From contig JBFRWN010000103.1 of NCBI GenBank assembly GCA_051439605.1, forward strand, positions 1-38,977: a stretch of 38,977 nucleotides of DNA, in the 5' to 3' direction. The notes under the pieces were generated by a model. It made no database searches. It was not told the DNA's origin and saw only the letters and a list, made by a program, of their open reading frames with translations. Source of the stretch: Synechococcus sp. GTDB lineage: Bacteria > Cyanobacteriota > Cyanobacteriia > Thermostichales > PCC-7336. Numbering within the stretch: the first letter of the stretch is position 1; every line of letters starts with the position of its first letter. This document shows, in pieces, positions 1,688 to 27,998 of this stretch. Both the position numbers and the translations under genes were made by a program.

Positions 1688-3118
1688 TTATTTCAATCGG
1701 TTTTCCTTGGCATACTCCCTCCGGATACCTTCAGAGAAGTCAGCTTGTCGCAGAACGGTTTCATCTCGGGAGATTGCCTTTAGGCAAGCAAATCGGATCG
1801 CGTTCATAATCGTTCCACCACTCATTTCGTACTCGTTAGCCATTTGGTTGAGATCTGCTCCAGGTTCTAAGTCAGCTGTATCGGGTAGACCTTTTTTCCA
1901 AATCAAGCGACGTTCACCCTGACGGGGCATGGGGAAATGGATGATTTGCTCGAAGCGGCGCGAGAAGGCTTCATCTACATTGTTGGCCAGATTCGAGGCT
2001 AGGATGACTAAGCCGTCGAAGGTTTCTACCCGTTGCAAGAGAAAGGATACTTCTTGGTTAGCGTAGCGATCGTGGGAGTCACGCACCTGGGTGCGTTTAC
2101 CGAAGAGGGAATCGGCTTCGTCGAAAAACAAAATCCAGCCTTTGTGTTCTGCTTTATCGAAAAGGGTGGCTAGGTTCTTTTCGGTTTCGCCGATGTATTT
2201 TGAAATCACCATAGACAAATCTATTTTGTAGACTTCTCGCTGGGTTGCTTTACCTAATAATGTGGCAGTTAAGGTTTTTCCGGTGCCTGGCGGTCCGCAG
2301 AACAGGACACGACAGCCTGGGCGCAGTTTTTTGCGCATGTTCCATTCGTCCATCAATACCTGTTCGTTTTGCAGCCAGTTCTCTAGTTCTTTGATTTGGC
2401 TGAGGGTGTGGCTGGGCAAGACCAGATCGTTCCAGTCCATGGCGGTTTCTAGTCTTCGGGCCGGAAACTGGAAACTCATGCGCGGTGGCCGGACTTTGCC
2501 GGTTAAAATGCGCTCAGCATACTCGGTATCGATAACTAAGCGACCGCTCATGGGGGGGTCTCCCTCGGGGGCGTCTTCGAGGGAAATGATGCCTTGCTGA
2601 ACTAGGGGGTGGTCACCCCAGAGCTGGGCTAGCCAGTAGAGGCGGGCTTCGAGAACGTCGCCTGCGAGCAGGAAAAGAGCGGTGTCGCCGGTAGGTAAGA
2701 AGCCTCGATGCTGGCGGCCGCGTATGCCCCCAATCCGGGGGAAATCTCCGGCTTGGGGCAAAACACTTTGAATCAGGCGATCGAAGAAGTCTGGCTGAAT
2801 CCAAGGAACAAGGGCTAGGAGGAGGAGGAGTTGGGAGTCGGCATCTAGGTGATAGTCGCAGATAAAGCAACTGTAGGGGTCATCTCCGCTGCAGGGGGGG
2901 AATTGGAATGTTTCTTGGTTCGGAGGAGCCTGGTTAGGGTCGCCGAAGGAAATCCTCAATCTTTGAGTTAATACCTTTTCTAGAACAGTGATCGCTTGGG
3001 TCAAATAGGACAATTGCCGTGTTATGGCGGATGAAAATTTGCTAAGTGTAACCATGGGGTAACCTCTACCATCGACTCCTGAAAGTAAACTCATTAAGCG
3101 AGATTTCAGTGTCTGCAT
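1688..3118 (-). CDS. eCIS-associated AAA+ ATPase (Afp15/Pvc15-like)
   Basis: Walker A GPPGTGKT, pore loop SKYIGETEKN, Walker B ILFFDEAD, DRYANQEVSFLLQR motif and arginine finger FSRRF. True start may be the ATG at 3055. Confidence 0.93.
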   Translation of the reverse strand: MQTLKSRLMSLLSGVDGRGYPMVTLSKFSSAITRQLSYLTQAITVLEKVLTQRLRISFGDPNQAPPNQETFQFPPCSGDDPYSCFICDYHLDADSQLLLLLALVPWIQPDFFDRLIQSVLPQAGDFPRIGGIRGRQHRGFLPTGDTALFLLAGDVLEARLYWLAQLWGDHPLVQQGIISLEDAPEGDPPMSGRLVIDTEYAERILTGKVRPPRMSFQFPARRLETAMDWNDLVLPSHTLSQIKELENWLQNEQVLMDEWNMRKKLRPGCRVLFCGPPGTGKTLTATLLGKATQREVYKIDLSMVISKYIGETEKNLATLFDKAEHKGWILFFDEADSLFGKRTQVRDSHDRYANQEVSFLLQRVETFDGLVILASNLANNVDEAFSRRFEQIIHFPMPRQGERRLIWKKGLPDTADLEPGADLNQMANEYEMSGGTIMNAIRFACLKAISRDETVLRQADFSEGIRREYAKENRLK

Positions 3119-4614: not shown

Positions 4615-7600
4615 TTAAAATTTCTCCTTAGCCTGCTCGCGAAGATCGTTTAGTTCTTGCCACTCTTCACTATCTTCATCAAAGAATTCCATCATCTCGC
4701 TAAGCAGACCGAATATAGTTTCAGCAGAGTTAGGACTTAAATCAGATCTATCAAATCTCCCTTCTGGGGGTTGTTTCCCTTCTGGAGGCTGTTTCCCTTC
4801 TGGAGGCTGTTTCCCTTCTGGAGGTTGTTTCCCTTCTGGAGGCTGTTTCCTCTCTGGGGGTTGTTTCCCTTCTGGGGGTTGTTTCCCTTCTGGAGGCTGT
4901 TTCCCTTCTGAAGGCTGTTTCCCTTCTGGAGGCTGTTTCCTCTCTGGGGGTTGTTTCCCTTCTGGGGGTTGTTTCCCTTCTGGAGGCTGTTTCCCTTCTG
5001 GAGGCTGTTTCCTTTCTGGAGGCTGTTTCCCTGCTGGGGGTTGTTTCCCTGCTGGGGGTTGTTTCTCTTCAGGAGGCTGTTTCCCTTCTGGAGGCTGTTC
5101 TCCTTTTCCTTTGGGAGGTTGGCTGAGCAAGCACTTCATGAGACGTTTAATCACAAATTTTCCAGAATCAGACTTGCTGCAACCAAGATGTTCTTTAATT
5201 TTCTCAAGAGAATATTTTTCGTGATTAAAAATTTCGAGAACTAGTTCAACTTGTCTCTCTGTGGCTGGCTCGCCAGGTACAAATTCAAATTTTGATAAAA
5301 CATCTTTTTTGACTGTATTGATATTTTTTTTCTCCCATTCTGACCTCAAATCACTCAGCTCTTTTTCGTTTGATTTACCATCATTAGGTAGGTTGCATGG
5401 AAACTCTTTCTCATCAAAGCTACAAGCGCCGCCTGCTGAAGCTGCAATTGTAGATAGTCCTGCTAAATCGAGAGCCTCCTTAAGTATTGTTTGATACCAC
5501 GAGCCTAGTTTAGAATTTAAGAGCTCACATACTTTTTCGTTGATTAAATCTTTGAACTGCGAAGTTCTTGCAACCAAATCAATTACTAAGCTCATTGCAA
5601 ATTGACCGACAATTCCCCATAGACACCCCCAAGCAGGAGGAGAAATGCAAGAAATCGCCTGAAATACCCCTCTTATTGCCCATTCAAGACCTCCAATAAA
5701 ACCGAGAATTTCATTGCTACGATTAACAAATCTAAAGAACTTTTCAAAGCTACTATTAAAGTCTGCTAATGTATCTTCTAGCTTCTCTTTAGAACCTTCG
5801 ATTAAATCTATAACTGTATCAATTGGATTAAGCAATTCATCAGTAACATCATTGTTTTTAAGTTGTTCAAGAAAGTCATTCATGACTTTATCCAGGATTG
5901 CATTCATACAACCTGAAAAAAGTTTATATGCATGCCCAATTAATTGTCCAAAGCCTATCTTTGCAGCCTTAATAAGGACATTGAATACACGGCGCTTCCA
6001 ATTTCCAAGCCCTGATTTATATTTTTTAATGCCCGTTACTCGTTTCTTGAATTGCTTGAACCTATTTGCCAGGCATTTAAAGAAAGCTTCAACTTTCCCC
6101 AATACTCTACCAAGCTTAAATCGGAGTGAACCAAGTTTATCGCCTAATTTTCCGCTCCACAACCTTATTTTCTTAATATCTCTAACTGAGGCATCAATCT
6201 TTTTACTTTTGATGCCATTAATGCCTAATTTGCTATCAATTTTATGCCGCTTTATGACACTCCGAATATATCCCTTTTCACTCTCTAGAATTTTCTTAGG
6301 GCCTGGGGATTTTCCAACAGGCTCCTTGCCATCTATCCAGCCCTTTCTAGCCGTTTTCCATTTTGCTTCTGCAGACTTTGACCATTCCTTGTTCGGGGGA
6401 GCATCTGGACATTTACTAGCTTTTGCTTGAATGAATAAATTTTCTGATATAGCTTTCTGATCACTCTTTTTGAGTTGAATGTTAAATGTAGGAGGGCCAG
6501 GACGAGGCTTCAAAGCTGTTGGTATGGGTTTCCGTTTCTTGCTTGCTTTTGATGAAACATTCTCTTCTAATTTAGATAGCTGCTCCTTAAGCTCGAGTGG
6601 CTCCTGCTCCCCACTATAGGGACTTTGAAGCAGGAAATATGTATACATACCATTTGGTAATCTATAAAGCCAAAGGCGGTCATAGAGCTCGTCGTCCCCA
6701 GTTTTAGTTTTTTTCTTTGGTTTAAGAAATTCAGCTAGCTCAGGAGCCTTTCGTGTAAGCTTTAACTTTTTCGCCAAGGTACGTGTTTTTTCGTCAAAAG
6801 AAGCTAGGTTCTTTCGGGCTTTATTGTAATTTAGTACATCTGGAATCTCAATATCTACAAGCTTTCTTCCTGTACTATTTGAACGAGTGGCATTATTGCT
6901 TTGTGTGTTGACTTGATTGATAAATTTTTCAAATCCTATTATATAATTATCTATCTGAAGCGTTCCAGACCCAACAGATTCAGCTGTTTTAAAATCTGTC
7001 TTGAAGAGAGGCTTGATTTCTCCAACATAAAAACTCTCAGGAAAGTCATTACTCCACTTACTCCCTTTTCCACACTTTGGTCCAAGCTTCGGATTTCTTG
7101 CTGATTCTATATTTCCTACTCGAGGTGGTTTTTCATAGAAAAAGTTTTCATCCTTGGAAATACAGTTTCTGGGTTTTGTTTTGTCAAAATAGTTCTTTGC
7201 CCTAACACCAGATACAATATATTCTTCTTTACTCTTATATAAATCTGCAAAGCCCACTAGATTGTGCTCAGGTCTTCCTTTTCTATGTGCACCTGGGATT
7301 GGAACCTCCGTCATTAATCCCTTATTTTTAGGCTCCTTTACAAGTACGCTCTCTATATTATTATGTGCCCAGGTTCCAGTATATCTTTTGTCTTCATTGA
7401 CCGAGAAACGCTGAAGATATCCATCTTTTTGTGAGATAGGATCTTGTATTGCTCTAATACCTGTCTGCTGAACTACATGCGAAAGTTCATGTGCTAATAA
7501 TTGATCGCCACTAAAGGTGCCCGGTTGATATTTATCTGATGCGAAGTAGATATCTAGACCTGTAGTAAAGGCATATGCATGAAGGGCTTTGGTAAGGTTA

Positions 7601-8697
7601 TTTGCTTCAGCATCAATATGCACGCGAACCTTGTTGAAATCAACACCAAACTTTGTCTCCATCAATTGGCGAGTTGATTTTGGTAGTTTAGTCCCTTTGC
7701 CTTTTTCTCTTAGAACCCGATGCTCAATATCATTTACATCTGAGTATTGTGAAGTAGAATATTTATGATTTAGATCGATTAACTTCAGCTTTGTTTGAAT
7801 CGCTGTGCTCTCTTCTTCTGGATCAATTTGCCCTTGAATAGTAGAGAATGTTTGACCGTAATTAGATTTTGGTTGAACTCTTTTATTTTCTTCCTCTCCT
7901 AAGACTGGTCCCGTTTGGATCTGTGCAAGAGGTGTAATTTCACTTGCCAACGGTTTTATTTTAACCATACCTTCGTTTTCATTTGGATAGCTCTGCCGTT
8001 GCATTTGGGGCTCTGACATCTGCATCACTTGATCCGCAACACGATCCGCTTCCTGCTCATATTTATCATTCGGCTGCCCAATCTTCAGCTTTGGCTGAAC
8101 AATGCCTAGTCCAGCTTTTTCCTCCTTTTCACAGCTGACACATTTACGCTGAATTAAAGGTAAGCCCATGTCTGCGAGAGGCTTAGTTTGAACAGTATCA
8201 TCAGTCTCCTCTTCAGCTCCCTCTGATTCAGCTTGTTTCTGAACTAGCGGTTTAATCTGACCCGCCACCTGCTTAGATTGAATGAGTTCCGGAGCTTCCT
8301 CTTCTGCCTCATCATCCATCCGTCGCTGCAACGCTGGTGCTTTATTTGGAATTACCTTTTTAGCTATTGGGTCTGCCTTTTGCTCATGGAAATTACTTGG
8401 CGGAGCGAGCTTTAACTGGGTTTGAATTGTAGTTTTAGAGTTATGCTCCGAAGGTGGAAAGGGGGCCTCGCCAGCAGAGTATTGATGGCTTTCCTGTTCA
8501 GAATCATACTCTTGCGCCTGTACTTCTTCTAGCTCTTTCCGGTCGCCAACTTCGCGCTTCGGTAGAACAGTAGTGATTGAGGGAGAGGCTAGAGCAGAGA
8601 AAAAAGGTGCTGTTTCACTCTCATGCGCCGTTTTTGAGAAAAAAGGTCGGCTCGTGTGGTTTTGCGAAGATTGTTGATGGGTATGGGTGCTCAACAT
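4615..8697 (-). CDS. DUF4157 (eCIS core domain) polymorphic toxin/cargo: leader repeats, DUF4157, REase-like nuclease, hydrophobic helical domain, QPPEGK repeats
   Basis: KLKIGQPNDKYEQEADRVAD and METKFGVDFNKVRVH...AYAFTTGLDIYF...LLAHELSHVVQQ (DUF4157). GTWAH...EVPIPG...ADL...EIKP...QIDNY pattern follows. ATG at 8697 preferred over the TTG at 8715. Confidence 0.85.
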   Translation of the reverse strand: MLSTHTHQQSSQNHTSRPFFSKTAHESETAPFFSALASPSITTVLPKREVGDRKELEEVQAQEYDSEQESHQYSAGEAPFPPSEHNSKTTIQTQLKLAPPSNFHEQKADPIAKKVIPNKAPALQRRMDDEAEEEAPELIQSKQVAGQIKPLVQKQAESEGAEEETDDTVQTKPLADMGLPLIQRKCVSCEKEEKAGLGIVQPKLKIGQPNDKYEQEADRVADQVMQMSEPQMQRQSYPNENEGMVKIKPLASEITPLAQIQTGPVLGEEENKRVQPKSNYGQTFSTIQGQIDPEEESTAIQTKLKLIDLNHKYSTSQYSDVNDIEHRVLREKGKGTKLPKSTRQLMETKFGVDFNKVRVHIDAEANNLTKALHAYAFTTGLDIYFASDKYQPGTFSGDQLLAHELSHVVQQTGIRAIQDPISQKDGYLQRFSVNEDKRYTGTWAHNNIESVLVKEPKNKGLMTEVPIPGAHRKGRPEHNLVGFADLYKSKEEYIVSGVRAKNYFDKTKPRNCISKDENFFYEKPPRVGNIESARNPKLGPKCGKGSKWSNDFPESFYVGEIKPLFKTDFKTAESVGSGTLQIDNYIIGFEKFINQVNTQSNNATRSNSTGRKLVDIEIPDVLNYNKARKNLASFDEKTRTLAKKLKLTRKAPELAEFLKPKKKTKTGDDELYDRLWLYRLPNGMYTYFLLQSPYSGEQEPLELKEQLSKLEENVSSKASKKRKPIPTALKPRPGPPTFNIQLKKSDQKAISENLFIQAKASKCPDAPPNKEWSKSAEAKWKTARKGWIDGKEPVGKSPGPKKILESEKGYIRSVIKRHKIDSKLGINGIKSKKIDASVRDIKKIRLWSGKLGDKLGSLRFKLGRVLGKVEAFFKCLANRFKQFKKRVTGIKKYKSGLGNWKRRVFNVLIKAAKIGFGQLIGHAYKLFSGCMNAILDKVMNDFLEQLKNNDVTDELLNPIDTVIDLIEGSKEKLEDTLADFNSSFEKFFRFVNRSNEILGFIGGLEWAIRGVFQAISCISPPAWGCLWGIVGQFAMSLVIDLVARTSQFKDLINEKVCELLNSKLGSWYQTILKEALDLAGLSTIAASAGGACSFDEKEFPCNLPNDGKSNEKELSDLRSEWEKKNINTVKKDVLSKFEFVPGEPATERQVELVLEIFNHEKYSLEKIKEHLGCSKSDSGKFVIKRLMKCLLSQPPKGKGEQPPEGKQPPEEKQPPAGKQPPAGKQPPERKQPPEGKQPPEGKQPPEGKQPPERKQPPEGKQPSEGKQPPEGKQPPEGKQPPERKQPPEGKQPPEGKQPPEGKQPPEGKQPPEGRFDRSDLSPNSAETIFGLLSEMMEFFDEDSEEWQELNDLREQAKEKF
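4756..5097 (-). repeat. 18-bp in-frame tandem repeat, 19 units, encoding QPPEGK and variants
   Basis: Units such as tttcccttctggaggctg on +; I count 19 hexapeptide units in the translation. Confidence 0.95.
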
Positions 8698-9307
8698 TGG
8701 AAGGCAATGTGTCAATAGACCTGAAACTAGCCTGGGCTCTGTATACCGGTAACCGATACTAATTCTCGCTCTAGAGCCTTACATCTGGAATCGCTTGAAT
8801 TTATAGATAAGAGATGGAGCTAGTAAGGGGATAGGAAAAACAAAATATTGTTTAACCCGCCCCTAAACGATTAAGCGGCAGAACGTAGTGGTTCATTCTT
8901 TAAAAAATAACACGATACACGATGAACTGAACGTTATCGTAAAAGATCTAAATAGACACACGCACTATCTAACGCTTAGAACTTAATAATTTAGATTTTG
9001 AGCTTTAACTTGATTGCAAATCAAATACCTTCAGGAAAACCTTTAGATCTATATTGAAAGCATCTCGAATTTGGAGCAGCTCGATTATTATTAATGGCTG
9101 ATCTAAATTCTCGACACAAAGCTGAGCTATTCAATGATTCCAAGCAAAGAGCTTGATGATTACGATGTCCTTCTCCGCCTCAACAAAACTATTTCCTATT
9201 TCTATAAAATCCATAAGTCACTTGGAGCTACGTATGGGAAGGAAACTTATATTCTTGAGCAATTAGTAGGCTGTTTATAAGCTGAATAAAGGATTGTGAA
9301 AATATCA

Positions 9308-11353
9308 TCAATTGACAGGTGTAGGTGCGCTGAGACCAGTTTGAGAGCGCCAATGACTCATTCGCGCCATCCCAAGATTTCCGGGACATGACCTTGATGT
9401 ATTGTACTCTTTATGACCGCCTAAAAAACTAATATTTGGGAATCGACCGATGAGATAATGAATTAGTTGAAGCAGTGAAGCTTCCATATCATTTGTTATT
9501 TCGTCGTCGGCATCGTACCACTGCTCATCTAAGTCTGCTAATAAAACGATACCTATTTTCCCGGTATTTCCTGCCGCGATATGTGCGCCTTTGACACTGA
9601 TATCGCGTCCTTCAGAAATACCTCCCCATCGGTCAATACCAAAATGGTATCCAATGTCTGCCATATCTCTATCATCTATGTGAAAGTCCTGAACTTCATC
9701 AATCGTTCTATAACCTTCATTGCCAGCATGATGTATCGCGATGCTATCGTATATGTCTTCTAAATTCCCCGTGTAGGGTTCATAGGAGCGATCGGGATCG
9801 TTAACTATGGGGGGTCGGGCTCCCCAAATCTCTCTATCGATAATGGTGGTGGATAGATCATACCGATTCCGCCAAATGCTACGCAGCCGACTGTATTTAA
9901 TTCCTACGAACATTCCCACTTGTAATTCCGTGCTAACAGTAAACGGCTCTCCTCTCTCCTCTTCATCCCACACAGCCCAGATATCAGTAGCCAAAGACTC
10001 ATCTCCATACAAATCGGCTGCAATCAAGCGTGGCGTTACTCCGGTTGCAATAATGTAGACGCGTTCGGGTGTTTGTTCATCCCAACGAATTTTCCCTTGA
10101 CTAATCAAATCTGGGGGTGGGGTGGGGGCTGGAGCTGTCTCCACACTTGGGGCAGGTGCAGGTTCTGCGCTAGGTTCCGTTGCGGGCGCCGGGATATCCT
10201 CATCATGCCAGATGCGAACCTGACTCATACTGGGCGTGTCAGTTGCATCGTAGAAACCAGAAACATGTATTTCTACTCGTTCCCCTTCATTAAGGTCTCG
10301 CAAATGTCGTCTACTATGACGCCGATGGAAGCGACGTGTTGGGGTGTGAAAGGGTTGCCACATACTAGCGCGCGGAATACCAGCGAAATCACTACTCCTT
10401 GCTGTGGCCGCGACAATACGCCGATATAGTTCTGCGTAGTCGTCAGACCAAGCCACGTGTATGACACCTTCGTAATGGGTAGCACCATCCCTTTGTATAT
10501 TCTCGGAAACTTTTGCGCCTTGCTGGCTTTGCTGCACTACGTGAGTGGCCTCATGAGCCAGCAAATGGATGTCATTAGCGTTTTCCCTTGAGCCTAGAAA
10601 TATATCCTGACCATGTGTAAATGCCCTAGCTCCAAGTTGTTTTGCCGCCTCTTGGGCACTTGCACTTCTATGAAGTCTGACTGAAGAAAGATTTGTATTG
10701 AGCAATGGCTCAATATGTCGCCGTATAACTGGGGGCAAAGGTTCTCCCGCATTGGGATTGGCAACCTGATTAGCAACTTCGACTGTCACTGGAGGCGTTA
10801 GCTGCGTCTCTCTACTACCAATCGCTTGGATAACAGGCATTTGGATCGCCGCAGAGCTCCTATCATGCCGCCTGAAAATAGGCGTTATGTTGGGAGGATA
10901 GGATTCAAAATTTGCTTGTACTGCAGATGCAGTTGGAGAGTGTAATTGGCTGACAACTCGATCTGCAACGCGGTCGGCTTCCTGTTCGTATCGATCGCCA
11001 GGTTGCCCCACAGTGAGTTTAGTTTGCAACATTGGCTTCTCCTGTTGCTCCCTCTCACATTCGACACACATCCGCTGAATAGGTGTATCTGCTAAAGCAT
11101 TGGTTTGGACAACTTCTTCTTCCTCATCTGGTAGAGTTTGCTGCTGTAAGGTGTTATCTAAAGACTTTGTCTGGACTGGAAGCTCTGCTTCTTTTTCTTC
11201 GGGTAACTGAGAAGTTTCCGCCATACGCTGCACAACATCGGAGCGCTCGTTAGAGAAAAAGGGTTTTGAATTTCTATGTATCGACGCTTTAGAGAAAAAC
11301 TGTCGGTTTCTGGTGGGATTAGAAAATCTGTGGTGCGGACGGGTAAGTATCAT
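9308..11353 (-). CDS. DUF4157 cargo with LysM-like domain and C-terminal N-acetylmuramoyl-L-alanine amidase (Amidase_2/PGRP/T7-lysozyme type)
   Basis: DUF4157 ARAFTHGQDIF...LLAHEATHVVQQ; amidase motifs REIWGA, IAIHHAG, DIGYHFGID, EGR, GAH, GHKE, SCPG. Confidence 0.9.
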   Translation of the reverse strand: MILTRPHHRFSNPTRNRQFFSKASIHRNSKPFFSNERSDVVQRMAETSQLPEEKEAELPVQTKSLDNTLQQQTLPDEEEEVVQTNALADTPIQRMCVECEREQQEKPMLQTKLTVGQPGDRYEQEADRVADRVVSQLHSPTASAVQANFESYPPNITPIFRRHDRSSAAIQMPVIQAIGSRETQLTPPVTVEVANQVANPNAGEPLPPVIRRHIEPLLNTNLSSVRLHRSASAQEAAKQLGARAFTHGQDIFLGSRENANDIHLLAHEATHVVQQSQQGAKVSENIQRDGATHYEGVIHVAWSDDYAELYRRIVAATARSSDFAGIPRASMWQPFHTPTRRFHRRHSRRHLRDLNEGERVEIHVSGFYDATDTPSMSQVRIWHDEDIPAPATEPSAEPAPAPSVETAPAPTPPPDLISQGKIRWDEQTPERVYIIATGVTPRLIAADLYGDESLATDIWAVWDEEERGEPFTVSTELQVGMFVGIKYSRLRSIWRNRYDLSTTIIDREIWGARPPIVNDPDRSYEPYTGNLEDIYDSIAIHHAGNEGYRTIDEVQDFHIDDRDMADIGYHFGIDRWGGISEGRDISVKGAHIAAGNTGKIGIVLLADLDEQWYDADDEITNDMEASLLQLIHYLIGRFPNISFLGGHKEYNTSRSCPGNLGMARMSHWRSQTGLSAPTPVN

Positions 11354-11482
11354 AATTACCTCAAATTAACCGCCGTGCTTGTAGCGTAGCATGCCTAAAT
11401 AGTAGGACTGTTGAAATGCTAAAAAGCTTAAACTACTGAAAATGAGTGTTGTTTTTTTAAAAAGAATCCCTTTAATACAAAG

Positions 11483-12334
11483 CTAAAACAACCTTTGCAG
11501 ACTTGGAAACTTGGAGGCTAATTTGACTAAATCAACTGAGAGCATAGATTGAAAACCTGGCCCAGTTTTTATGGGGGGCAATCCGGGCACGTTCTGCATC
11601 AGTGTGGATGGCAACCCGAGATGACCGGGAACGGGAAGTACCTCGGGATATGGGCTGAGCTCGGTAAAGCTCTTACCTTCTGCTTTCAGACCGCCGCCGA
11701 GGAATTCCAAGCCAAACTTACCTCCCGTTAAAGACAAGCTTTGCCCGGGAGTATACGCTGTATCCAATCCGAAGGTTGCACCCGTGAGCGGTACTTGTGG
11801 ATAGCGATCGCGGAGCAACTCTAGGTAAGGATTAAATGTAAACTCTCCAGAAAAACCATATTCCGATTTTCCGGGCCTCGGCAGTTTGTATTTAAATCCT
11901 TCAATAGGAGAATATGGTAGCCAACCCAGAGGTTGCCCAATATTGACATCGGACAGTAACTCGCGTGCCTCTGGATTGAGTGCGAAAACTAATCCCGCCA
12001 GGCCTAGGTTGACGCCCCCAAAAGTAATTAGAGCTGCTTTTTCATGGCTCGGTCGCTTTTCCCACAGGCGTTGTTTCAAGAAATCCAATTTCGGTTCGTA
12101 CCAGGCTTTAAATTTTGGTACTTTCAAGAGTTGTTTCCCAGTTGTTTTTAAGCCTTCAACCAGGGGATCTTTTTCTTTTGGCTTTTCGGCTTCAGATTTT
12201 TCGGGTTCTGCGGGTTCCTGTCGCTGAACCATAGGCGATCCGATAGTCAAGGACTGAATAGCGGGAACGGGATCTGCTCGGAAGAATGGCTGACGCCCGC
12301 CAGTTGGGTCGTAACTGTGCGCTGGGCGAAACAT
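11483..12334 (-). CDS. hypothetical protein, putative CIS cargo with a short PFF/VQR leader
   Basis: N-terminus QPFFRAD...IQSLTIGSPMVQRQEPAE resembles the leaders of the neighbouring DUF4157 proteins; one hydrophobic segment AALITFGGVNLGLAGLVFAL; Gly-rich, beta-strand-like C-terminus. Confidence 0.65.
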   Translation of the reverse strand: MFRPAHSYDPTGGRQPFFRADPVPAIQSLTIGSPMVQRQEPAEPEKSEAEKPKEKDPLVEGLKTTGKQLLKVPKFKAWYEPKLDFLKQRLWEKRPSHEKAALITFGGVNLGLAGLVFALNPEARELLSDVNIGQPLGWLPYSPIEGFKYKLPRPGKSEYGFSGEFTFNPYLELLRDRYPQVPLTGATFGLDTAYTPGQSLSLTGGKFGLEFLGGGLKAEGKSFTELSPYPEVLPVPGHLGLPSTLMQNVPGLPPIKTGPGFQSMLSVDLVKLASKFPSLQRLF

Positions 12335-12533
12335 CGGCTGTGCGGCCGAGTACTGAATGAATTCCGTTTGGTTTTCCGGGTTTTCACGAGAACCTCCTCT
12401 GCTATCGGAAGGTTGAGGGAGGAGAAAAAGCTGAAAGAAAATTCTGCCATCTTGCTTCCAGCTTTTTCTTCAGTGCAGCGAATACAGGATGATACTGGCA
12501 TCCTTGATTATCCAATACAAATTTGGAAAAGCG

Positions 12534-14927
12534 CTAAGACTCAATACCGCTTACTGAATCCGAAGTACGACGCTTCCAAAACCAGAGGAGTAAAAGCAGC
12601 AGCAAGACAATTACAATAATCAAGATAACGAGCCATAAGGGAAACTTCTTAGTGGGACCAAATTGTTCGGCGGAACCCTGATAAATCTCTTCATCCAAGA
12701 ATTTGAATGAAATTGCTGTATTGGGCTCTTTTCTATCTAAGAGAAGGGTATAGCTGCCGTCTTGATGATCTCGAACACTAACAACATCAAGACCGTCAAC
12801 ACTCATGGCTGAAGCTTGTCCCGGTCCGATTAAACGACCGTCGATCGTCATCGGTCGCCAGTACACCAAGATGTTATTTCCATCAACAACTGTTGTTACT
12901 GAAGAGGAATCTAAGTCGATCGCTCCGGGGCGGACAAAGAGACTTTGTATAGCTTCCCGTTGGATTTTGCCTAGATTTGGGTCATCTGCAGTGATGCGAT
13001 AGAGAATTTGGTAAACATCTGAAATGTCGCCAGGATTATAAGCGGCACTGTAAATTCCATCTCCTTGATAGTCGAGGGTGAGTGTTTGTTGGTTTGGTTG
13101 GAGTCGATCGACAAAGTCAGGATTGTTAAGCAGTAGAGACCAATATTTTTCACCTCCAGCTGAATATGCGTCTTGAACACAGGTAAGACAAGAATCGACT
13201 CTGCCTGGAGTTTTAGCTAACAAATCTCCCAAATCATCCCCTGGCTTTAAGATTAATGCTTCGACGTTGGCATTAGAGATAGGCTGACCGAATACACTTA
13301 GCTTCACAGTTGGAGAGAAGGATTGATTAGTTTGTGGAGCATCAGGTGCGACAGACCACCTCATATCGAGAATACTATCGTCTGCGATACTCGCCAGACG
13401 GAAAGGAAGAGGACTTGTACTATTGGTGGGTTGACTGAGTTGAACCTCGTAGCTTCCCTCAGAAGGAAGAGGGGGTAAACTAGATTGGCCTGAAGGAGAG
13501 GATTGGAAGCGACTTTGTAACCAGATCGTTTGGGCAGTATCACCGACGATCTTCGGCTCAAAATAATTGGTAACAGGTTCCCCATCCTTAAGCACGTTAA
13601 TGTTTGCCAACAATTCCTCTAAGTCAGAACGAGGAAGCTCTCGTTCAAAGGTCAGTTTAAGAATTAGCTGGCGGACATTTTGATTTAAGTTGAAGGGAGT
13701 TAAAGTGATTTCCCCGCCAAGAACATCCTGGTATTGTGCAACAATTTGGGGACTACTGCCTGATAAAGCTGCAACTAACGCTCCATCTAAAGCAGAACTA
13801 ATGTCTCCTGTGGTTGTCAAAATGACTGAATTACCGCCGTTTTGGCTAGCCAGGTTTTGTAAGATTGTGAAATAATCGCTGCTGGGTTGGATAATACCGA
13901 CAGAAATAATTTCAATATCCGATAAATCTGGACAAGTAGCATTAATTGCTGTTGGGGGTGTGGTATCGTAGTTCACTCCATCTAGCTGTACATGAGATGG
14001 ATCGCCTTCCGGCTCTTGTTTGCCGTCTGTGAACAAGACAAGGATCCTGGGGCGGTTACAGTCATCTAGCTTCTCTTCTGCATCTTTCAAACCAAGTCCC
14101 ATTCTTGTATAGCCTGAAGGGCCACCGGCCTCTTCTAGCATTTCAGTAACGGTACTCTCTAAATCATCATCAACGGGCAGCAGGTCAGATGAAAATTCGA
14201 CTCCACCGTCAAAAATAGTCAGACCAAATCGGCTGCCGTCTGGTGGAGAGGTATCATCGACCATATTTGCTAGTACCGCACTGTCTAGGACAGCATTTGT
14301 CAAAGCTTGCCAACGGGTAATTTTATCTGGATCGGGAACCGTTGGATCGGCATAATTACTCATGCTTCCAGAGCGATCGAGCACGAAGCCCAAATCAAAG
14401 GGGACTTCAATATCTACAGCAAAGGTGCGTGTAGCCACCTCAGCAGCCCCCCCCTCTTCTGCAACCGTCAGACCAAAGGTGAAGGAAGTGGAAGCAGTTG
14501 GTTCCCCAGGTACTCTAGTTGGTGTCCCAAATACTCTAACTGGTAACCCCGCTGAAACTGGAGAATCGGGTGCCCCCATTGGAAGCTCGACAGTTACACC
14601 ATTACAGGTAGCAGAATTGGTAGGAGTGGACGGTGTACAAACGACGTCACCTCCGCTTGAAGGGGATGGATTAAATTCCCAGAACACTTCTCCAGGTGCA
14701 TTTTGGACATTAATGTGTTCGTCTTCTTCCACAATCGGCGTATCGACCACGACCTTAATCGTGTGAACGATCGTGTTGGGGGGGGGATCTGGTGTTGTTA
14801 TGTCAATTGCATAGGGATCGGCAATGGCCGTATTGCCTGTAAATACGAGAAATACAGTGGCCAGCCAAAGGCAATGCCAGATCGAATGGCTGGCCCTTGT
14901 TAAGTGAGTTCGTATTGAGACTTTCAT
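12534..14927 (-). CDS. secreted, membrane-anchored VWA-domain protein (signal peptide, Ig-like domain, VWA, C-terminal TM helix)
   Basis: ATG at 14927 gives signal peptide MKVSIR...LWLATVFLVFTGNTAIA/DP; MIDAS DRSGS plus T and FTDG; C-terminal PLWLVILIIVIVLLLLLLLWFWKRR stop-transfer. The ORF-track start at 15146 overlaps the tape measure gene. Confidence 0.85.
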   Translation of the reverse strand: MKVSIRTHLTRASHSIWHCLWLATVFLVFTGNTAIADPYAIDITTPDPPPNTIVHTIKVVVDTPIVEEDEHINVQNAPGEVFWEFNPSPSSGGDVVCTPSTPTNSATCNGVTVELPMGAPDSPVSAGLPVRVFGTPTRVPGEPTASTSFTFGLTVAEEGGAAEVATRTFAVDIEVPFDLGFVLDRSGSMSNYADPTVPDPDKITRWQALTNAVLDSAVLANMVDDTSPPDGSRFGLTIFDGGVEFSSDLLPVDDDLESTVTEMLEEAGGPSGYTRMGLGLKDAEEKLDDCNRPRILVLFTDGKQEPEGDPSHVQLDGVNYDTTPPTAINATCPDLSDIEIISVGIIQPSSDYFTILQNLASQNGGNSVILTTTGDISSALDGALVAALSGSSPQIVAQYQDVLGGEITLTPFNLNQNVRQLILKLTFERELPRSDLEELLANINVLKDGEPVTNYFEPKIVGDTAQTIWLQSRFQSSPSGQSSLPPLPSEGSYEVQLSQPTNSTSPLPFRLASIADDSILDMRWSVAPDAPQTNQSFSPTVKLSVFGQPISNANVEALILKPGDDLGDLLAKTPGRVDSCLTCVQDAYSAGGEKYWSLLLNNPDFVDRLQPNQQTLTLDYQGDGIYSAAYNPGDISDVYQILYRITADDPNLGKIQREAIQSLFVRPGAIDLDSSSVTTVVDGNNILVYWRPMTIDGRLIGPGQASAMSVDGLDVVSVRDHQDGSYTLLLDRKEPNTAISFKFLDEEIYQGSAEQFGPTKKFPLWLVILIIVIVLLLLLLLWFWKRRTSDSVSGIES

Positions 14928-14968
14928 GGTTGTAGGCTCATTCAGCTTGAAAATAAGTTTTTGCTTGC

Positions 14969-16738
14969 TTAAGATGTCCAGCTGACATGCAAAAAATCCG
15001 ACATCCAGGGCAGGCGAATCACTCCGATGCTCCATGGCAGCTTGTCGAGCAACACATCCTGGGCGCGGCGCTCGATCTCCAGCTTCCAGCCGAAATCCAC
15101 TCGGGTTAGCTTGCCATCGCGCCAGAAAAACTGTTGGCGTAACCAATCTGCCGAGCTACTGCGGAGAGCGCTCCAGTGTTTCAGCACTGCACCGAGTAAT
15201 TCTGCGGCAGCTTTGCATTCAGACTCGTCCAGTTCGTACGGGGGGAGAGGTTCCTCCCAAAGCCAACTGCAAAGAAGCTTGGGTAGCAAGAGATCGTATT
15301 CCAAAACATCGAGATCTCCGTAAGTTAGATAGGTCGTAAGGGCAACAGCACTCCGCTGGGCTTGCTGATCGCGGAACTGGAGATTGCTCAACAAGTCGAG
15401 GCTGCCAAACAGTTCTTGCAAGAATGGATGCACAATGACGGCACCCGCACCCTCTATATAGAGGGATTCGATTAAATCTTCGTCCAGAGAGACAGTTGCC
15501 TTGAAGGGAAGCACTGCATTCATTTGCACCAGTGCTTCTCTAGATTCCAGCAAATTCTTTCCAGGCTCTGTTGAACTCCTGTCAGATGAACGCAGATCGA
15601 CGACTAACGGTTCACTGGGTGTATCTATCGCACGTTGTCGAACCCAACCCTCTTTGTGTGTGGATGAATGAGGGCTTCCATCATCCTGTGTGGTTGACTT
15701 TGCTGGAGTAGCTGGTTGCTGTATGGGGGGATCGTCGCTGTCGCGATCGCAGGCTTCATAACTCGTCCCATCGATGGGTGCCTCTAGCTCTGGGGGAACA
15801 ACCGTTGTTTGCGAGTGCTGAAGTGGATTGATATATTGTGGAACGCTCTCCAGCCAGCTTTGCCAAGGTTGGGGCAGCTGCAACGATCGACCGGATCCAT
15901 CCACACAACCATTGGCAGGATGGCAAGCACCCGTTTCTGGGGCATTAATACCAGCGGCGTTGATCGACTTTTGTCGCTCTGCAAGCAGCCGTCTCACGAG
16001 CTTTGGTCCCCCTTGCCAGGTAGCCGTTAATTGAGCGGTTGAGCCAGCGAACGAGATCGCACTCGCTGGGATGGTTGACTCCAGCACGATGACCCAAAAC
16101 TGCTCGCGCCATAGCGATTGCGATTGTCGGCTCAGTCCCTCCGGCATCAACAACATCCGAACGCGGGCCGATGACGCCAGTTCGCAGAGTCTTTGGGGAA
16201 TGGTTTGCAAAAACTCATCGCTGACCGTGTAGATCGACCGTCGCAGGGCTCTGCTGTCTTGACGGAGGAGAGATGCGAGAGACCGATATTGGGCTCGAGT
16301 CATCGTGGATGGCAACGTCTCTAAAGATTCGCGAGAAGGCTTGCGACTCTCCCAGGGCAAACGGCCGTACTGGCAAAAGAATAAAAATTGCTGAAACAGA
16401 CCGTCGCGGGTGCTCCCTCGGGACGATGAGTGTTGCGATGTTAAATCCTGCGTTTCTAAAGCCTGTGTCAGCTTTTCTTCTAACTGTTCTGCCAAGCGAC
16501 GGCTGAATTGCTCCGGCCAATCGCTGCCGCGCAGCTCGCCCAAGTCTATCTCAACCCGTTCTAACCGAATCAGCTCGTCTGGGCCTACTAGGCGATCGAA
16601 CAGGGTCTCCATAACCCTCTGTCCCCGATCCCGAAACACTTGGGCGACAGCACTTTGGAGTTCAATTGCTCCTTCAGTCCGGTTCAGCTCCAGCGCTAAG
16701 ACCTGACGGAGAATCTGGTGGGTGTTGTCAGGTGCCAT
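14969..16738 (-). CDS. contractile injection system tape measure protein (Afp14-like)
   Basis: N-terminal HQILRQ...IRLERVEIDLG and FCQYGRLPW; C-terminal YIEGAGAVIVHPFL...LLPKLLC...VLKHWSAL...RDGKL...DVLLDKLPWSIGVIRLPWM. Confidence 0.9.
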   Translation of the reverse strand: MAPDNTHQILRQVLALELNRTEGAIELQSAVAQVFRDRGQRVMETLFDRLVGPDELIRLERVEIDLGELRGSDWPEQFSRRLAEQLEEKLTQALETQDLTSQHSSSRGSTRDGLFQQFLFFCQYGRLPWESRKPSRESLETLPSTMTRAQYRSLASLLRQDSRALRRSIYTVSDEFLQTIPQRLCELASSARVRMLLMPEGLSRQSQSLWREQFWVIVLESTIPASAISFAGSTAQLTATWQGGPKLVRRLLAERQKSINAAGINAPETGACHPANGCVDGSGRSLQLPQPWQSWLESVPQYINPLQHSQTTVVPPELEAPIDGTSYEACDRDSDDPPIQQPATPAKSTTQDDGSPHSSTHKEGWVRQRAIDTPSEPLVVDLRSSDRSSTEPGKNLLESREALVQMNAVLPFKATVSLDEDLIESLYIEGAGAVIVHPFLQELFGSLDLLSNLQFRDQQAQRSAVALTTYLTYGDLDVLEYDLLLPKLLCSWLWEEPLPPYELDESECKAAAELLGAVLKHWSALRSSSADWLRQQFFWRDGKLTRVDFGWKLEIERRAQDVLLDKLPWSIGVIRLPWMSDFLHVSWTS

Positions 16739-19700
16739 TGGCCACTCCGTTCAGAGAAATAATCAGGGCCTCTCGAGCAGCATCAACTTCTGAATCATCG
16801 ATGCCTGGGAATAGCTGGGTTTCCAGCCACCTGAAATAGGCGGCCTCGAAGTGTTCGAAACAACTCGGTATTGCTTCAAAGGTCGGAGAGGTATCGGTAA
16901 GTTGTATGTGTCGATCTACCCAGTAGATCTTGGGAAATAAATGCACCGGGCAGGCTTGTTGAACGATCCGTTCGGCGTGACGGCGAAATTCACGATCGCG
17001 AAATCGGGCAGGGCTTATTGGCTGTGGTTCTTCAGAATCTAGAGAAAAGTCACGAGCATACCCGGACGGGAATATCAAGGATAATCGTTGACTGTAGGGA
17101 TCCCGTTCTTGTTCGAGATCGGTCAAGGGCAACGAAAGGAAGCGATCTCCCTGCTGGTGCGGACGCAACAAAATATGTTCGATAGTATGAAACCCTTCTG
17201 CACTGTAAAGCGAGTACAGATGATGTATGGTTTCGTCAATGGCTGCTTGCGCTTCTCCCACTGAGGGTAGCGAGGGTAATCTCAGCGCCAATATCTCTCC
17301 ATTGGGATGGAGCAACTCAAAATTGAACGTACCCGGGCCTGCAGGTGAAACACGATAGTTCCAACCATTTAATCCATAGCGTAAGACGCGTTGAATCGAG
17401 CCCTGTGCCAGCGCAACTGCCTCACCATCGGTAGGAGCTTCAAAATGGAATGTACTGCTCAACAAAACAGATCCGGTGTATCCCCTTTCTGTCCACAAAC
17501 GCCACCGTTTTTCGATGATGCCATCGCTATCTAATTCGTCGTAGATTTCAAAAAACTCGTCAATCGGTAAGCTCAACCGGCGCCGCCTTCGATCGCGAAT
17601 CCCCGTGAGATGGGCAATGCGCCGTTCCATCGGCATCGCAGCAGTCTCTATTCGCAGTCTGGCAAACAAAGCTGAAGTTACGATTGATGCATCGTTAGCC
17701 GCATTGGTCGTAGTCCAAGTTCGCACGCTAGTGCCTACTATCCGAGCACTCATCTCAGCGCCAGTTCTCAGCTCGTAGTGAAAGCGACCCGACCCAGCAC
17801 TTTCCACCCTATAGAAATTGCGTTGTGTTGCTAGAATTGCCGCGTCTTCTGACTCAATCGTGGCTGCTGCTTGGGTCGGGAAACTGTCCGCCGAGCGCAA
17901 TCGTTGTTCGCCTTCTAGCACCAGTACCCAATGAAAGTAGCCATCGAGGTTTTGCTCCAACTGTAGCTGTTCTGGGTCGCGTCGCAGCGGATGCCCAAAT
18001 CCTTGCAATTTGTTCGAGTTCAGGTCGGGGATAGCAGCTAAAAAATCAGCCTTATCACCGATCAGGCCCGCGTTAACAGCTTGGCGCCGGGTATCAATTG
18101 GGTCGTCGGGAGGAAGGGGCGCGAGCTCGAGGGCTGAATTAAGCTCCGCTTGCGCCCAGCGATGCCGTTCCTGTGTCCAGGTCACCATGTCTTCCCCTTG
18201 GATTGCCAGCAAACGATCCAACATGCGGTTACGTCGATCTAATAACTGCTCGTGCGATTCAACCGCTGCTCGTAAGGCCACCCGATAAGAATTGTTGGGA
18301 TCGTCGACATAGCTGGGCCAGTCACTTCCCATTGGCAACCGTTTGAGGAGTTTTTGCATACCTGGTAATTCAAACAAGGCCCTGGTAAAGTATGTGGATT
18401 GTTCTTCAGGATTCGCCGAGAAGAATCGATTGATGTTGCCTAGTTGAGCGGTTAGGTCTGCCAGAAATTGTTCGAACAGTAATAAATATCCTTGGGTTTG
18501 CAGGGTTCGCGAGGGTAAATCACGAGCGGTTTCCCATGAAACGCTCCCTTCGCCAACACCAAAAATGCGAGGTAAGTCGTTCTGAAAGGCAAAGTAATCT
18601 TCTATTGGTAGCCAATCACCCGGCTGTACCGGCCAAACAGGTGAAAACGCCTGGGGGCGTGTCGAGCCCCGATATTGGCTTTGTTTTTCGTCGAATAGGG
18701 CCGTCACACGGCGAGGATCGTAAGCAACTTCTACATCGTTGCGGACAAAGTTAATGCGAGATTTGGACAAACTCAAGCGCGGTCGATACAGATCTATTTC
18801 TACGAGGTTTAAGCAGTTTGGTGCATCTGTTGTGATGGGACGGTTATTCACATAGTTGCTCAATGCCAAATCGGTCACTGCCACAATGTCTCGGCCTGTG
18901 GGATTTTCTTGGGCAACCACGTCCGTGCTAGAGGAACTGCGCAAGCGCATGATGATTCGCAGAATATCGGAGGTATAGATTTTGTCGTTGCGCAATAAAG
19001 GCTCGGTATCGCTTGCCTTAAGAAAACCGTGTTTCAATAAGGGGCCGTCATAGAGTGCTTCGGCACTTTTTCCGAGATCTCGCATTTCGGCCAGCGAAGA
19101 AAACTGCACGAGCGGTGACAGCGCCAAGTCAATGGTGAAATAGATTTCGGCAAGAAGCTGTTCTAGATCGGTGCTGCCGGTGACTTCGATACGGGCGCGA
19201 AGACCGATTTCCTGAACTCTGGCTACCTTTAGGCGGATTGGGTATTCGCATAGGTTTCGCCAGCTTTCCGCGTAACGATGGACTTGGAGCGCGCCAGTGC
19301 TTGCCTCCTGCACCCGAGCAACAAACTGCGAGATCGGGCTAGTTGAGTCACTAGTCTCTAAGAGAGTTCTGGCATTTGTCAGAATGCCGGTAATTACAGT
19401 CGCAGGTCTATCCAGCTCGCTGGTGATATGCAACAAAACCCACAGATCGATATGGTCAGTGGCGTCGCTGGTATCGTTATAGCTAACTCGTAAGGTGCCG
19501 AAGTAGCTTAGTGGCTCTGTTAGGGCACGCCATACCTGACCAGCTGGCGCGTCTTCACGCTCCAGCATAGCGATCGAATTCACAGTGGCACCGGCTCTGA
19601 AGGGGGCAGCCTCGGCCTCATCCCAATAGGGCAGGGCAATATCTAACTGGTAGGGATCGCCTCCATCTTCTGCTTCTATCGAAAAGGAATAGGTATTGCT

Positions 19701-20192
19701 ATTCCACTCTCTCGTTTCAAAAACCAGCATGACTTCGTAAAGACCGCGAGGCTCTATTTGAGATGAGCCTGGGTCGTAAGTGAAGGGCGGATCCATGCCG
19801 ACCGCTTGAAAAAAGGGAACTTCGCTATCGGTAGTCGCCACAATCCGGGCTTCACTGACCAAAGGATGGTCTAGCAGCATCTTTTGCCAGTCTCCTGCCG
19901 CTATCGGTGCCGATGGTAAGGCGCGATGGACAGGAACAAAATCTGGCAGCGCATGACTTTCTCCACTTCGGAGCAAATCCGCCACATCTTGCTGGAGCCG
20001 GAATCCCAACTCTGTCATGGCATAGCTAAACGCTTCCAGCAGCGTTATGCCTGGATCGTGGACATTATGGTCGGTCCACGTGTCTTGCGCCAGTTCGCGG
20101 ATTAGTTGCATGCCCTTCTCACGCAAGGCAGCGTAATTCATACTGGTGCTGGTGGGAGGAGTTGATGATATGCGGACGGGAGTATCGTTCAT
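16728..20192 (-). CDS. baseplate protein Afp12-like with an insertion of four YegP/DUF1508-like repeats
   Basis: WTDHNVHDPGITLLEAFSYAMTELGFR N-terminus; QTQGYLLLFEQFLAD; EGFHTIEHILLRP...DPYSQRLS...QACPVH C-terminus. ATG at 20192 preferred because it avoids overlap with the fibre gene. Confidence 0.88.
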   Translation of the reverse strand: MNDTPVRISSTPPTSTSMNYAALREKGMQLIRELAQDTWTDHNVHDPGITLLEAFSYAMTELGFRLQQDVADLLRSGESHALPDFVPVHRALPSAPIAAGDWQKMLLDHPLVSEARIVATTDSEVPFFQAVGMDPPFTYDPGSSQIEPRGLYEVMLVFETREWNSNTYSFSIEAEDGGDPYQLDIALPYWDEAEAAPFRAGATVNSIAMLEREDAPAGQVWRALTEPLSYFGTLRVSYNDTSDATDHIDLWVLLHITSELDRPATVITGILTNARTLLETSDSTSPISQFVARVQEASTGALQVHRYAESWRNLCEYPIRLKVARVQEIGLRARIEVTGSTDLEQLLAEIYFTIDLALSPLVQFSSLAEMRDLGKSAEALYDGPLLKHGFLKASDTEPLLRNDKIYTSDILRIIMRLRSSSSTDVVAQENPTGRDIVAVTDLALSNYVNNRPITTDAPNCLNLVEIDLYRPRLSLSKSRINFVRNDVEVAYDPRRVTALFDEKQSQYRGSTRPQAFSPVWPVQPGDWLPIEDYFAFQNDLPRIFGVGEGSVSWETARDLPSRTLQTQGYLLLFEQFLADLTAQLGNINRFFSANPEEQSTYFTRALFELPGMQKLLKRLPMGSDWPSYVDDPNNSYRVALRAAVESHEQLLDRRNRMLDRLLAIQGEDMVTWTQERHRWAQAELNSALELAPLPPDDPIDTRRQAVNAGLIGDKADFLAAIPDLNSNKLQGFGHPLRRDPEQLQLEQNLDGYFHWVLVLEGEQRLRSADSFPTQAAATIESEDAAILATQRNFYRVESAGSGRFHYELRTGAEMSARIVGTSVRTWTTTNAANDASIVTSALFARLRIETAAMPMERRIAHLTGIRDRRRRRLSLPIDEFFEIYDELDSDGIIEKRWRLWTERGYTGSVLLSSTFHFEAPTDGEAVALAQGSIQRVLRYGLNGWNYRVSPAGPGTFNFELLHPNGEILALRLPSLPSVGEAQAAIDETIHHLYSLYSAEGFHTIEHILLRPHQQGDRFLSLPLTDLEQERDPYSQRLSLIFPSGYARDFSLDSEEPQPISPARFRDREFRRHAERIVQQACPVHLFPKIYWVDRHIQLTDTSPTFEAIPSCFEHFEAAYFRWLETQLFPGIDDSEVDAAREALIISLNGVANGT

Positions 20193-20208
20193 TGGGAACC
20201 TACACCGC

Positions 20209-21360: not shown

Positions 21361-21402
21361 AATCTGTTCTCCAGAATTGTTGTTGAAGAAATCGACAAGC
21401 GG

Positions 21403-24702: not shown

Positions 24703-24704
24703 AG

Positions 24705-25109
24705 CTATACCAAGTTGGCTTCATCCAGATAGAAGGGATACACCAAATTACTGCGGGTATTCGTGACTCGAATGGTGTAATCCAGCCGAATCTCAATCAG
24801 TCCCTCCCGGTTTGGAGGCAGTTCAAATGTGACCTTGTTGAGTTCGATCCGAGATTCGAAAAATAAGATTGCCGTTTCGATTTCCCCTTTCAGGTAGGAC
24901 GCAAAAGTAGTAGATAGTGGCTCGAACAACAATGCGTCGCGTTTCCACCCAAAAGCAGGTCGCATTACCCGTTCTCCTAACTCGGTAGAGAGGAGAATAT
25001 TCAGGCTTTGGCGAATGTCCTCTTCTGCCTCCGCCATCCGCACGCTACGGCCCTGATTTTCAAAAACCAAAGGAAAGGCCCATCCTTTACCGAGAAACTG
25101 TTCTTCCAT
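24705..25109 (-). CDS. baseplate GPW/gp25 protein (Afp9-like, sheath initiator)
   Basis: FLGKGWAFP...EDIRQSLNILLSTELGERVMRPAFG...NLVYPFY; ATG at 25109 preferred. Confidence 0.95.
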   Translation of the reverse strand: MEEQFLGKGWAFPLVFENQGRSVRMAEAEEDIRQSLNILLSTELGERVMRPAFGWKRDALLFEPLSTTFASYLKGEIETAILFFESRIELNKVTFELPPNREGLIEIRLDYTIRVTNTRSNLVYPFYLDEANLV

Positions 25110-25116
25110 AGCTGTA

Positions 25117-25407
25117 CTACCCCCCAATCATCACAGTGGGGCAGCCCGCGATAATACTTCCGCCATGGGCAGTACTATCTCCCAATCGGGCAGCTGGCAT
25201 CCCCCCGATCGTCACAGTGGCGCTACCCATAATTACGGTATCTGGAGGGCCGCTGCAGGTCAGCATGTCTCCCATCCTCAGGGCAGGCATGCTACCAACC
25301 ATCACGGTGGGTTCCCCTGGTGGCAAAGCGGGACCACCTAAATGAGGAACAGTGCCAGTAACCATTGGGCAAACATGCATATCGCCAGCGCGGGCTGCAG
25401 GGGGCAT
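25117..25407 (-). CDS. PAAR spike-tip protein (Afp10-like)
   Basis: MPPAARAGDMHVCP...PALRMGD...PAARLGDSTAHGG...GCPTVMIGG; AGGAG RBS upstream of the ATG at 25407. Confidence 0.95.
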   Translation of the reverse strand: MPPAARAGDMHVCPMVTGTVPHLGGPALPPGEPTVMVGSMPALRMGDMLTCSGPPDTVIMGSATVTIGGMPAARLGDSTAHGGSIIAGCPTVMIGG

Positions 25408-25488
25408 GGGTTCATCGCTCCTGTTTCGACTCAACAAAAAACATTTCAATCAACGGGATATACAAGGTTGTAAAAGACAAAGAAAAGA

Positions 25489-27995: not shown

Positions 27996-27998
27996 GAC

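Follow-up and report, generated by a model that had tools for sequence, protein, structure and literature searches.

In AlgoCIS, which is the eCIS (extracellular contractile injection system) found in Algoriphagus machipongonensis, two proteins, Cgo1 and Cgo2, fill the lumen of the tube and gave no sign of mutual interaction in a two-hybrid analysis (PMC8894135). According to the accessible text of a preprint on this system, deletion of the N-terminal domain (NTD) of the cargo abolishes loading, the DUF4157 domain is dispensable and the activity of Alg15 is required; necessity was mapped to the whole NTD only, and sufficiency to the NTD plus DUF4157 (bioRxiv 10.64898/2026.05.27.728243). The density in the lumen is described there as unstructured, threading of the cargo is the authors' model, and the loading sequence is regarded as not conserved between systems and perhaps ATPase-specific, with disorder as the common feature (bioRxiv 10.64898/2026.05.27.728243). 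The present work concerns a stretch of 38,977 nucleotides from Synechococcus sp. (assembly GCA_051439605.1, contig JBFRWN010000103.1, positions 1 to 38,977; contig C103 of genome G000), hereafter the window, which carries a contractile injection system (CIS) cluster with three consecutive genes whose N-terminal leaders contain pairs of adjacent phenylalanines (FF). With moderate confidence, and from sequence comparison, we consider these FF pairs to be the recognition core of a tube-loading signal, with the short AAA+ ATPase encoded in the cluster as its probable reader.

Selection of cargo by eCIS is stated to be unresolved, and the accessible parts of three sources describe no signal sequence that is conserved (PMC11297309, bioRxiv 10.1101/2023.11.13.566157, bioRxiv 10.64898/2026.05.27.728243). 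N-terminal loading sequences are already known; the FF core would be what is new. No description of an FF loading motif was found in the eCIS literature, in a search with subscription papers mostly outside its reach, and Extended Data Fig. 3b of the AlgoCIS preprint, with six cargo NTDs, may show FF aligned.

Comparison of the locus with described systems

Pfam matches identify a complete contractile injection gene set in the window (tube, sheath, spike, PAAR, gp25, baseplate, tape measure and cap), and the cluster also holds DUF4157 cargo genes and an AAA+ ATPase gene. The structural genes occupy 14969..34789 on the minus strand. The order on that strand is a Pvc16-like cap, two sheaths, the tubes, spike, PAAR, gp25, baseplate, an S74-chaperone fibre and the tape measure, followed by a vWA-domain gene, the three leader-bearing genes, a YbjN-domain gene and the ATPase. 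The nearest solved relative of the sheath is All3325 of Anabaena (E 3e-140), and entry 7adz and its companions, including 7aeb with AlgoCIS in its title, match with E 6e-138. Sheaths of the Photorhabdus virulence cassette (PVC) and the antifeeding prophage (Afp) lie far behind All3325 and AlgoCIS, with 4e-69 at best.

The ATPase gene (1688..3118, minus strand; Pfam PF00004), Alg15-like in the tree described below and the putative reader of the leader, encodes a protein of about 455 residues from ATG 3055 (about 455-476 residues) with a single Pfam AAA match, and not the N, D1 and D2 domains of a protein of about 700 residues. Pvc15, in comparison, has 698 residues and N, D1 and D2 domains (PMC11495950). 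The earlier note had argued from PVC, the cargo of which is packaged via N-terminal leaders with Pvc15 involvement; the sheath and the size of the ATPase both set the present cluster apart from PVC. We classify the system, known here from its genes alone, as an eCIS of the AlgoCIS/tCIS type (tCIS, thylakoid-anchored CIS), the ATPase of which is short and resembles Alg15.

With AlgoCIS the window shares the sheath clade, the short AAA+ ATPase, cargo composed of NTD, DUF4157 and C-terminal domain, and an FF pair, which in AlgoCIS falls within residues 23-29, before Q-A-K-L. Two Algoriphagus DUF4157 proteins of 498 and 1228 residues, listed in the Dataset EV rows (PMC11297309, supplement file 7), each contain a single FF just before Q-A-K-L. 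Their lengths match those given for Cgo1 and Cgo2, and the pair is at residues 28-29 and 23-24, respectively, as counted by hand. The AlgoCIS cargos differ in having one FF each, whereas the window cargos have two, with VQR repeats between FF and the QxKL module, and the window adds a protein family without DUF4157.

With the tCIS of Anabaena/Nostoc PCC 7120, with which the cargo candidates Alr3311 and Alr3312 co-purify (PMC8894136), the window shares its closest solved sheath, All3325. The 1340-residue DUF4157 protein of that strain has three FF within 42 residues, at 21-22, 30-31 and 41-42 (PMC11297309 supplement, counted by hand). The tCIS-type genomes differ from the window in the distance between ATPase and cargo genes, which is about 26-30 kb, as seen in the cyanobacterial clusters L037-L039, L154, L159 and L162. 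PVC and Afp resemble the window in having polar N-terminal leaders of 20-50 residues and AAA+-dependent tube loading (PMC11495950; bioRxiv 10.1101/2023.11.13.566157; PMC11297309). They differ in the absence of a consensus leader from the accessible accounts, and the first 8 residues of Pdp1 and the first 20 of Afp18 contain no FF.

FF pairs in the leaders of two DUF4157 cargo proteins

The first of the two DUF4157 cargo genes (4615..8715, minus strand; the big cargo) probably starts at ATG 8697. Its leader (8575..8697) has FF pairs at residues 19-20 (8643-8638) and 32-33 (8604-8599). The pairs are at identical positions, residues 19-20 (11299-11294) and 32-33 (11260-11255), in the leader (11231..11353) of the amidase cargo, the gene of which (9308..11353, minus strand) starts at ATG 11353. 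The leaders stand at the extreme N-terminus, are 20-50 residues long and polar in composition, and are likely to be disordered, as judged from the model of the 283-residue protein described below. Their general layout is a basic, Ser/Thr-rich start of about 16-24 residues, [PSAT]FF, mostly 8-14 residues, a second FF and then [VI]Q[RK]. The residue after FF is variable (A in 22 cases, S in 16, G in 10, K in 9, and others). A leader of the type FFSK/PFF, shared by three consecutive genes, had been proposed in the earlier note. The three N-termini quoted there are present in the sequence as written and the FF pair is shared, but FFSK is not the unit and the leader of the third gene is frame-broken.

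A single FF within the first 50 residues is frequent in this genome (176 of 2367 open reading frames (ORFs) of at least 250 residues), and two pairs occur in 11 of the 2367. A leader profile of 37 positions was made from 40 leaders outside the window, picked for two FF-like pairs. A stricter hidden Markov model (HMM) used 33 of these 40, with the window and its five closest loci excluded. With the stricter model the two DUF4157 cargos of the window ranked first (the big cargo) and second (the amidase cargo) among 7150 ORFs with 37,781 candidate N-termini. Their scores were 33.5 and 22.9 bits, and nothing in the background exceeded 10.9 bits. Both this ranking and the count of two-pair ORFs place the motif above chance. 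The genome has three DUF4157 proteins, the two in the window and a third, on contig C16, the neighbour of which is a long ATPase; this third protein was not picked by the model.

The plain pattern of two FF separated by 6-18 residues was unspecific (28 of 7150 ORFs), and PFF by itself showed no N-terminal enrichment genome-wide. A leader-only profile run against 1.84 billion proteins gave two matches, a low-complexity repeat and a fragment of the 283-residue family described below, its power being too low. The orphan cargo that had been expected elsewhere in the host was not found, as no further candidate rose above background among the 7150 ORFs with the leader HMM. In five related genomes only training sequences were matched, in a search insensitive enough to miss the FF leaders of G298 and G177.

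Of the window's five FF pairs, four have the codons TTT TTC. In the wider set the codons track GC content: where GC is high, 22 of 35 pairs use TTC TTC, and where it is low, 5 of 48 do. Since the codons follow GC content, the constraint on FF is at the protein level. An origin of FF from a T-run in the DNA was rejected on this codon usage. A promoter scan of 8600-9400 gave results at chance level.

Distribution of FF leaders among injection systems

ATPase loci were sampled from 301 cyanobacterial genomes, 301 genomes from the phylum to which Botryobacter belongs and 351 from that of Nitrosomonas. Part of the ATPase matches was fetched, giving 80 regions, and six loci came from a scan of the genome collection. 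The groups were read off a quick tree of these 86 ATPases: 32 long-ATPase loci (three of them short ORFs on long branches), a subclade of 17 short-ATPase loci (SH-aLRT 98) and 37 remaining short-ATPase loci, including the window. An FF within the first 50 residues was found in 39 of the 44 neighbouring DUF4157 proteins of the remaining short-ATPase loci (the two of the window included; at least two FF in 31), in 0 of 20 of the subclade and in 1 of 21 of the long-ATPase loci. Counted by locus the figures were 26/29, 0/13 and 1/15, respectively; a locus was counted if a cargo gene with an intact 5' end lay within about 10 kb, which excluded 8, 4 and 17 loci. Kin are not independent in these counts, which carry no p-value. 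In a shuffle test 0.73 proteins with two FF were expected and 29 were observed. Three of the five proteins lacking FF have tandem FI, and a fourth likewise when read from its GTG start. The 496-residue nuclease of Pseudoalteromonas luteoviolacea, which we take to be Pne1, has no FF.

Genomes with two systems are a stronger control than counts between loci. In six such genomes (G000, G002, G346, G348, G586 and G177) the FF or FI leader was confined to the cargo of the window-like cluster among the DUF4157 proteins examined, three DUF4157 matches of G002 having been left out. In three held-out genomes of the tCIS type, two or three FF were present in 5/5 DUF4157 proteins, compared with 0/2 for a long-ATPase cluster; in one of the genomes (G212) cargo and ATPase are on separate contigs. 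In the window genome the second CIS is dispersed: a long ATPase and one DUF4157 cargo lie at G000:C16:55000-73900, sheath and tube matches on C6, and tube and spike matches on C96.

Modularity of the leaders

FF leaders also occur on three other cluster genes without DUF4157, at loci L135, L137 and L099. The gene of L135 has 32 homologues, and FF was tallied from the printed list of these. Among the members without DUF4157 annotation FF was present in the first 50 residues in 14 of 20 (several of the other six look partial), and in some of these only about 35 residues precede the domain. Among those with DUF4157 FF was found in only 2 of 12, and a leader of the CACGGxC type in 7 of 12. The L135-type domain is thus preceded in some proteins by nothing but an FF leader, in others by an FF leader and DUF4157, and in yet others by DUF4157 with a leader that lacks FF. 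Because it travels with different leaders, these are modular.

Leaders of the CACGGxC form are a third type, one without FF. Cysteine-rich QRKCxxC and CACGGxC modules, possibly metal-binding, recur in N-terminal regions of cargo (L138-L149, P0138-P0148). A further leader type, with a single R-[PG]-[FW] at residues of about 20-35 and no FF, was seen in 21 of 30 cyanobacterial DUF4157 N-termini, the background being 43 of 2367 ORFs. Its sources are L001-L030, G000:C16:66917-70192, L155 and L158, with a long ATPase adjacent where the context was seen.

The 283-residue gene and its family

The third leader-bearing gene (11483..12334, minus strand; 283 residues from ATG 12334, 126 homologues) has no DUF4157. 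Its truncated leader begins with MF at residues 1-2, has PFF at 16-18 (FF 17-18, 12286-12281) and VQRQE, and is followed by three helices and a beta-meander. Most of 120 listed homologues begin about 17 residues upstream of the ATG. The broken front of the leader is found at 12335..12400 (minus strand), with a Shine-Dalgarno-like AGAGGAGG (12400-12393) and, in another frame, a GTG start at 12387 as well as a 5' segment that is basic. Because this strong ribosome-binding site and GTG 12387 sit in another frame, the gene is frame-broken between about 12350 and 12335, and it may be a pseudogene or encode a protein with a truncated leader. The letters at the break are repeated in one contig of depth 24, itself possibly the source of this DNA; in three other sequencing runs no listed piece spans the break. 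The leader HMM gave 8.6 bits for the ORF as it stands, within background, and 15.5 bits from the upstream start with X at the break.

Of 119 homologues checked, 104 had a full leader. All 104 carry at least one FF and 76 carry two, with the first FF at residues 19-21 in 74 of the 76 and a spacing of 13-14 in 66. In an alignment of 80 rows three F columns are 99, 99 and 100% conserved, whereas conservation of the positions that separate the pairs does not exceed 68%. For the Q of VQR it is 97%. A CIS structural gene, an ATPase or a DUF4157 gene is a neighbour at 13 of 21 metagenomic loci (some of them near-duplicates); of the others, one is fused to DUF4157 and seven are on contigs shorter than 5 kb. 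A cargo role for the family is supported by the protein P0110, which joins its C-terminal domain to an FF leader and DUF4157.

The AlphaFold model of the 283-residue protein has a mean pLDDT of 76, with values below 50 in the leader and about 50 or lower over residues 1-52. The best structural match to the three helices and beta-meander is middling (Z 6.9, to beta-barrel walls; rmsd 6.8-8.9, 94-109 residues aligned), and Foldseek found nothing at E 0.001 or better. That the protein is membrane-active is a guess.

Proposed mechanism and alternative explanations

From where the FF pairs stand, how well they are conserved, their distribution over the clades, the modularity of the leaders and the constraint at the protein level we infer that FF would be needed for loading and that the ATPase would be its partner. 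The leader presents one to three FF pairs and is variable in its other residues and probably disordered. The leader, and not DUF4157, would be needed for loading in the window system as it is in AlgoCIS, where whole-NTD deletions have shown this. The ATPase would engage an FF pair, repeated pairs perhaps adding avidity on the hexamer, and would then unfold the cargo and thread it into the tube; the need for the ATPase has been shown in AlgoCIS and threading is the model of its authors. The earlier proposal that the leader is the loading signal remains the best reading, through clade-wide conservation, retention without DUF4157 and the presence of FF in the validated cargo NTDs of AlgoCIS, all of it support at the level of sequence.

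Several observations weigh against this reading. FF is missing from 5 of 44 proteins, and when FI is allowed the count of proteins with the motif is 42/44, but the counts of the other groups are then 2/20 and 1/21. The FF-positive group is the unresolved remainder of a quick tree and no supported clade, kin are not independent, and the motif tracks the ancestry of the whole locus, so that the tree of the ATPases gives no reason to prefer the ATPase over other candidate partners. As Cgo1 and Cgo2 have a single FF, loading does not depend on a tandem. A QxKL-G-PxD-YEQEAD module and VQR repeats were likewise part of the NTD removed in AlgoCIS, and either of them is possibly the signal. The 283-residue family is only putative cargo and its window copy is frame-broken. 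In the accessible texts, PVC and Afp leaders are without consensus and are described as mutation-tolerant. A predicted complex of ATPase and leader scored 0.00, with control pairs not folded, and speaks neither for nor against the reading.

It is conceivable, though we think it unlikely, that FF is needed for loading through a partner other than the ATPase, be it the inner wall of the tube, the tape-measure protein, the cap or baseplate, or packing of cargo against cargo, and that the ATPase reads only disorder. The motif goes with the locus in its entirety no less than with the ATPase, and disorder is the feature that the AlgoCIS preprint regards as common to loading sequences (bioRxiv 10.64898/2026.05.27.728243). 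The unstructured lumen density and the essential activity of Alg15 reported there argue against this explanation, and so does the two-hybrid result for Cgo1 and Cgo2 (PMC8894135).

We give similarly little credence to the explanation that FF is an inherited part of the NTD with another job, be it to keep the protein stable in the producing cell, to free it from the tube or to touch the membrane of the target, the signal being composition or disorder, or the VQR or QxKL-YEQEAD elements. The homologous NTD of the two larger cargos, the likewise conserved Q of VQR in the 283-residue family and the lack of a consensus in the signals reported for other eCIS would fit it. However, the 283-residue ORF has no YEQEAD module, and none was found in the L135-family members without DUF4157, the shortest leaders of which, about 35 residues, have FF. 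The QxKL-G-PxD-YEQEAD module is present in 39/44 proteins of the remaining short-ATPase group, but the groups without FF have it too, in 8/20 and 9/21 proteins, and it is therefore no hallmark of the clade. Lastly, a resemblance by chance or from a DNA- or RNA-level T-run, with which the TTT TTC codons and the frequency of single FF would agree, is largely refuted by the held-out HMM ranking, the nearly invariant F columns, the GC-dependent synonymous codons and the shuffle test, and is hardly credible.

If FF pairs read by the ATPase are indeed the loading core, a loading tag of about 40 residues would take the place of one of several hundred (NTD plus DUF4157), cargo that lacks DUF4157 could be found by rule, and there would be an explanation of how cargo is kept apart in cells with two systems. 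A core of two residues also makes cargo selection accessible to point mutation in AlgoCIS, where loading assays exist. A wider and more tentative proposal is that CIS sort their cargo by short aromatic motifs specific to each clade and read by their own ATPases, with one to three FF in AlgoCIS/tCIS-type systems and R-[PG]-[FW] in cyanobacterial systems with long ATPases, and that the FF leader of 35-40 residues is the whole signal. With such leader dialects two systems in one cell could sort cargo and stay orthogonal, and cargo families without DUF4157, such as the 283-residue beta-meander protein, would become recognisable.

Cargo bodies and neighbouring genes

The two larger cargo proteins have homologous N-terminal regions (34% over 142 aligned columns, E 9e-18) and share DUF4157, so that the view of unrelated domains behind a common leader applies to their C-terminal parts only. 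In the big cargo the leader is followed by repeated [VI]Q[RT] units, a CxxC and the QxKL-G-PxD-YEQEAD module, and then DUF4157 (7459-7686, minus strand; Pfam PF13699). The domain after DUF4157 (about 6916-7395, minus strand) is a predicted PD-(D/E)XK nuclease, with H, E, D, [ED]xK and QxxxY invariant in 9 homologues. Many PD-(D/E)XK nucleases are among the fold matches of its model (pLDDT 49), with Z at most 4.3; the best ESM Atlas match, 0.79, is a lead only, and a PDB sequence search with the domain alignment gave no match. The label of toxin given to this protein in the earlier note agrees with the predicted nuclease signature, on which alone it rests. A long helical region follows, and near the C-terminus there are about 20 tandem QPPEGK-type repeats (about 4750-5100). 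The amidase cargo has DUF4157 at 10520-10741 (minus strand; PF13699, E 6e-22) and an Amidase_2 domain at about 9377-9748 (minus strand; PF01510, E 2e-8, above cut-off).

The vWA-domain gene (12534..15146, minus strand; Pfam VWA_2) has a hydrophobic C-terminal stretch and no FF leader. It lies between the tape-measure gene and the 283-residue gene, its slot in this sub-lineage, and is 44% identical to the gene in the same slot of L133. Genes resembling it, with hydrophobic ends, fill that slot in L129, L133, L144 and L153, and other genes of about 500 residues in L137-L140 and L147. At the upstream edge of the cluster there is a transposase-like ORF (35380-36900), with weak matches to ISH6 and ISLre2. 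A YbjN-domain gene, at 3327-4604 in the window and at G000:C16:65148-66446, adjoins DUF4157 cargo or ATPase in both CIS types of this genome, and is next to cargo or ATPase also in L042, L044, L115 and L134; it possibly has an immunity or chaperone role.

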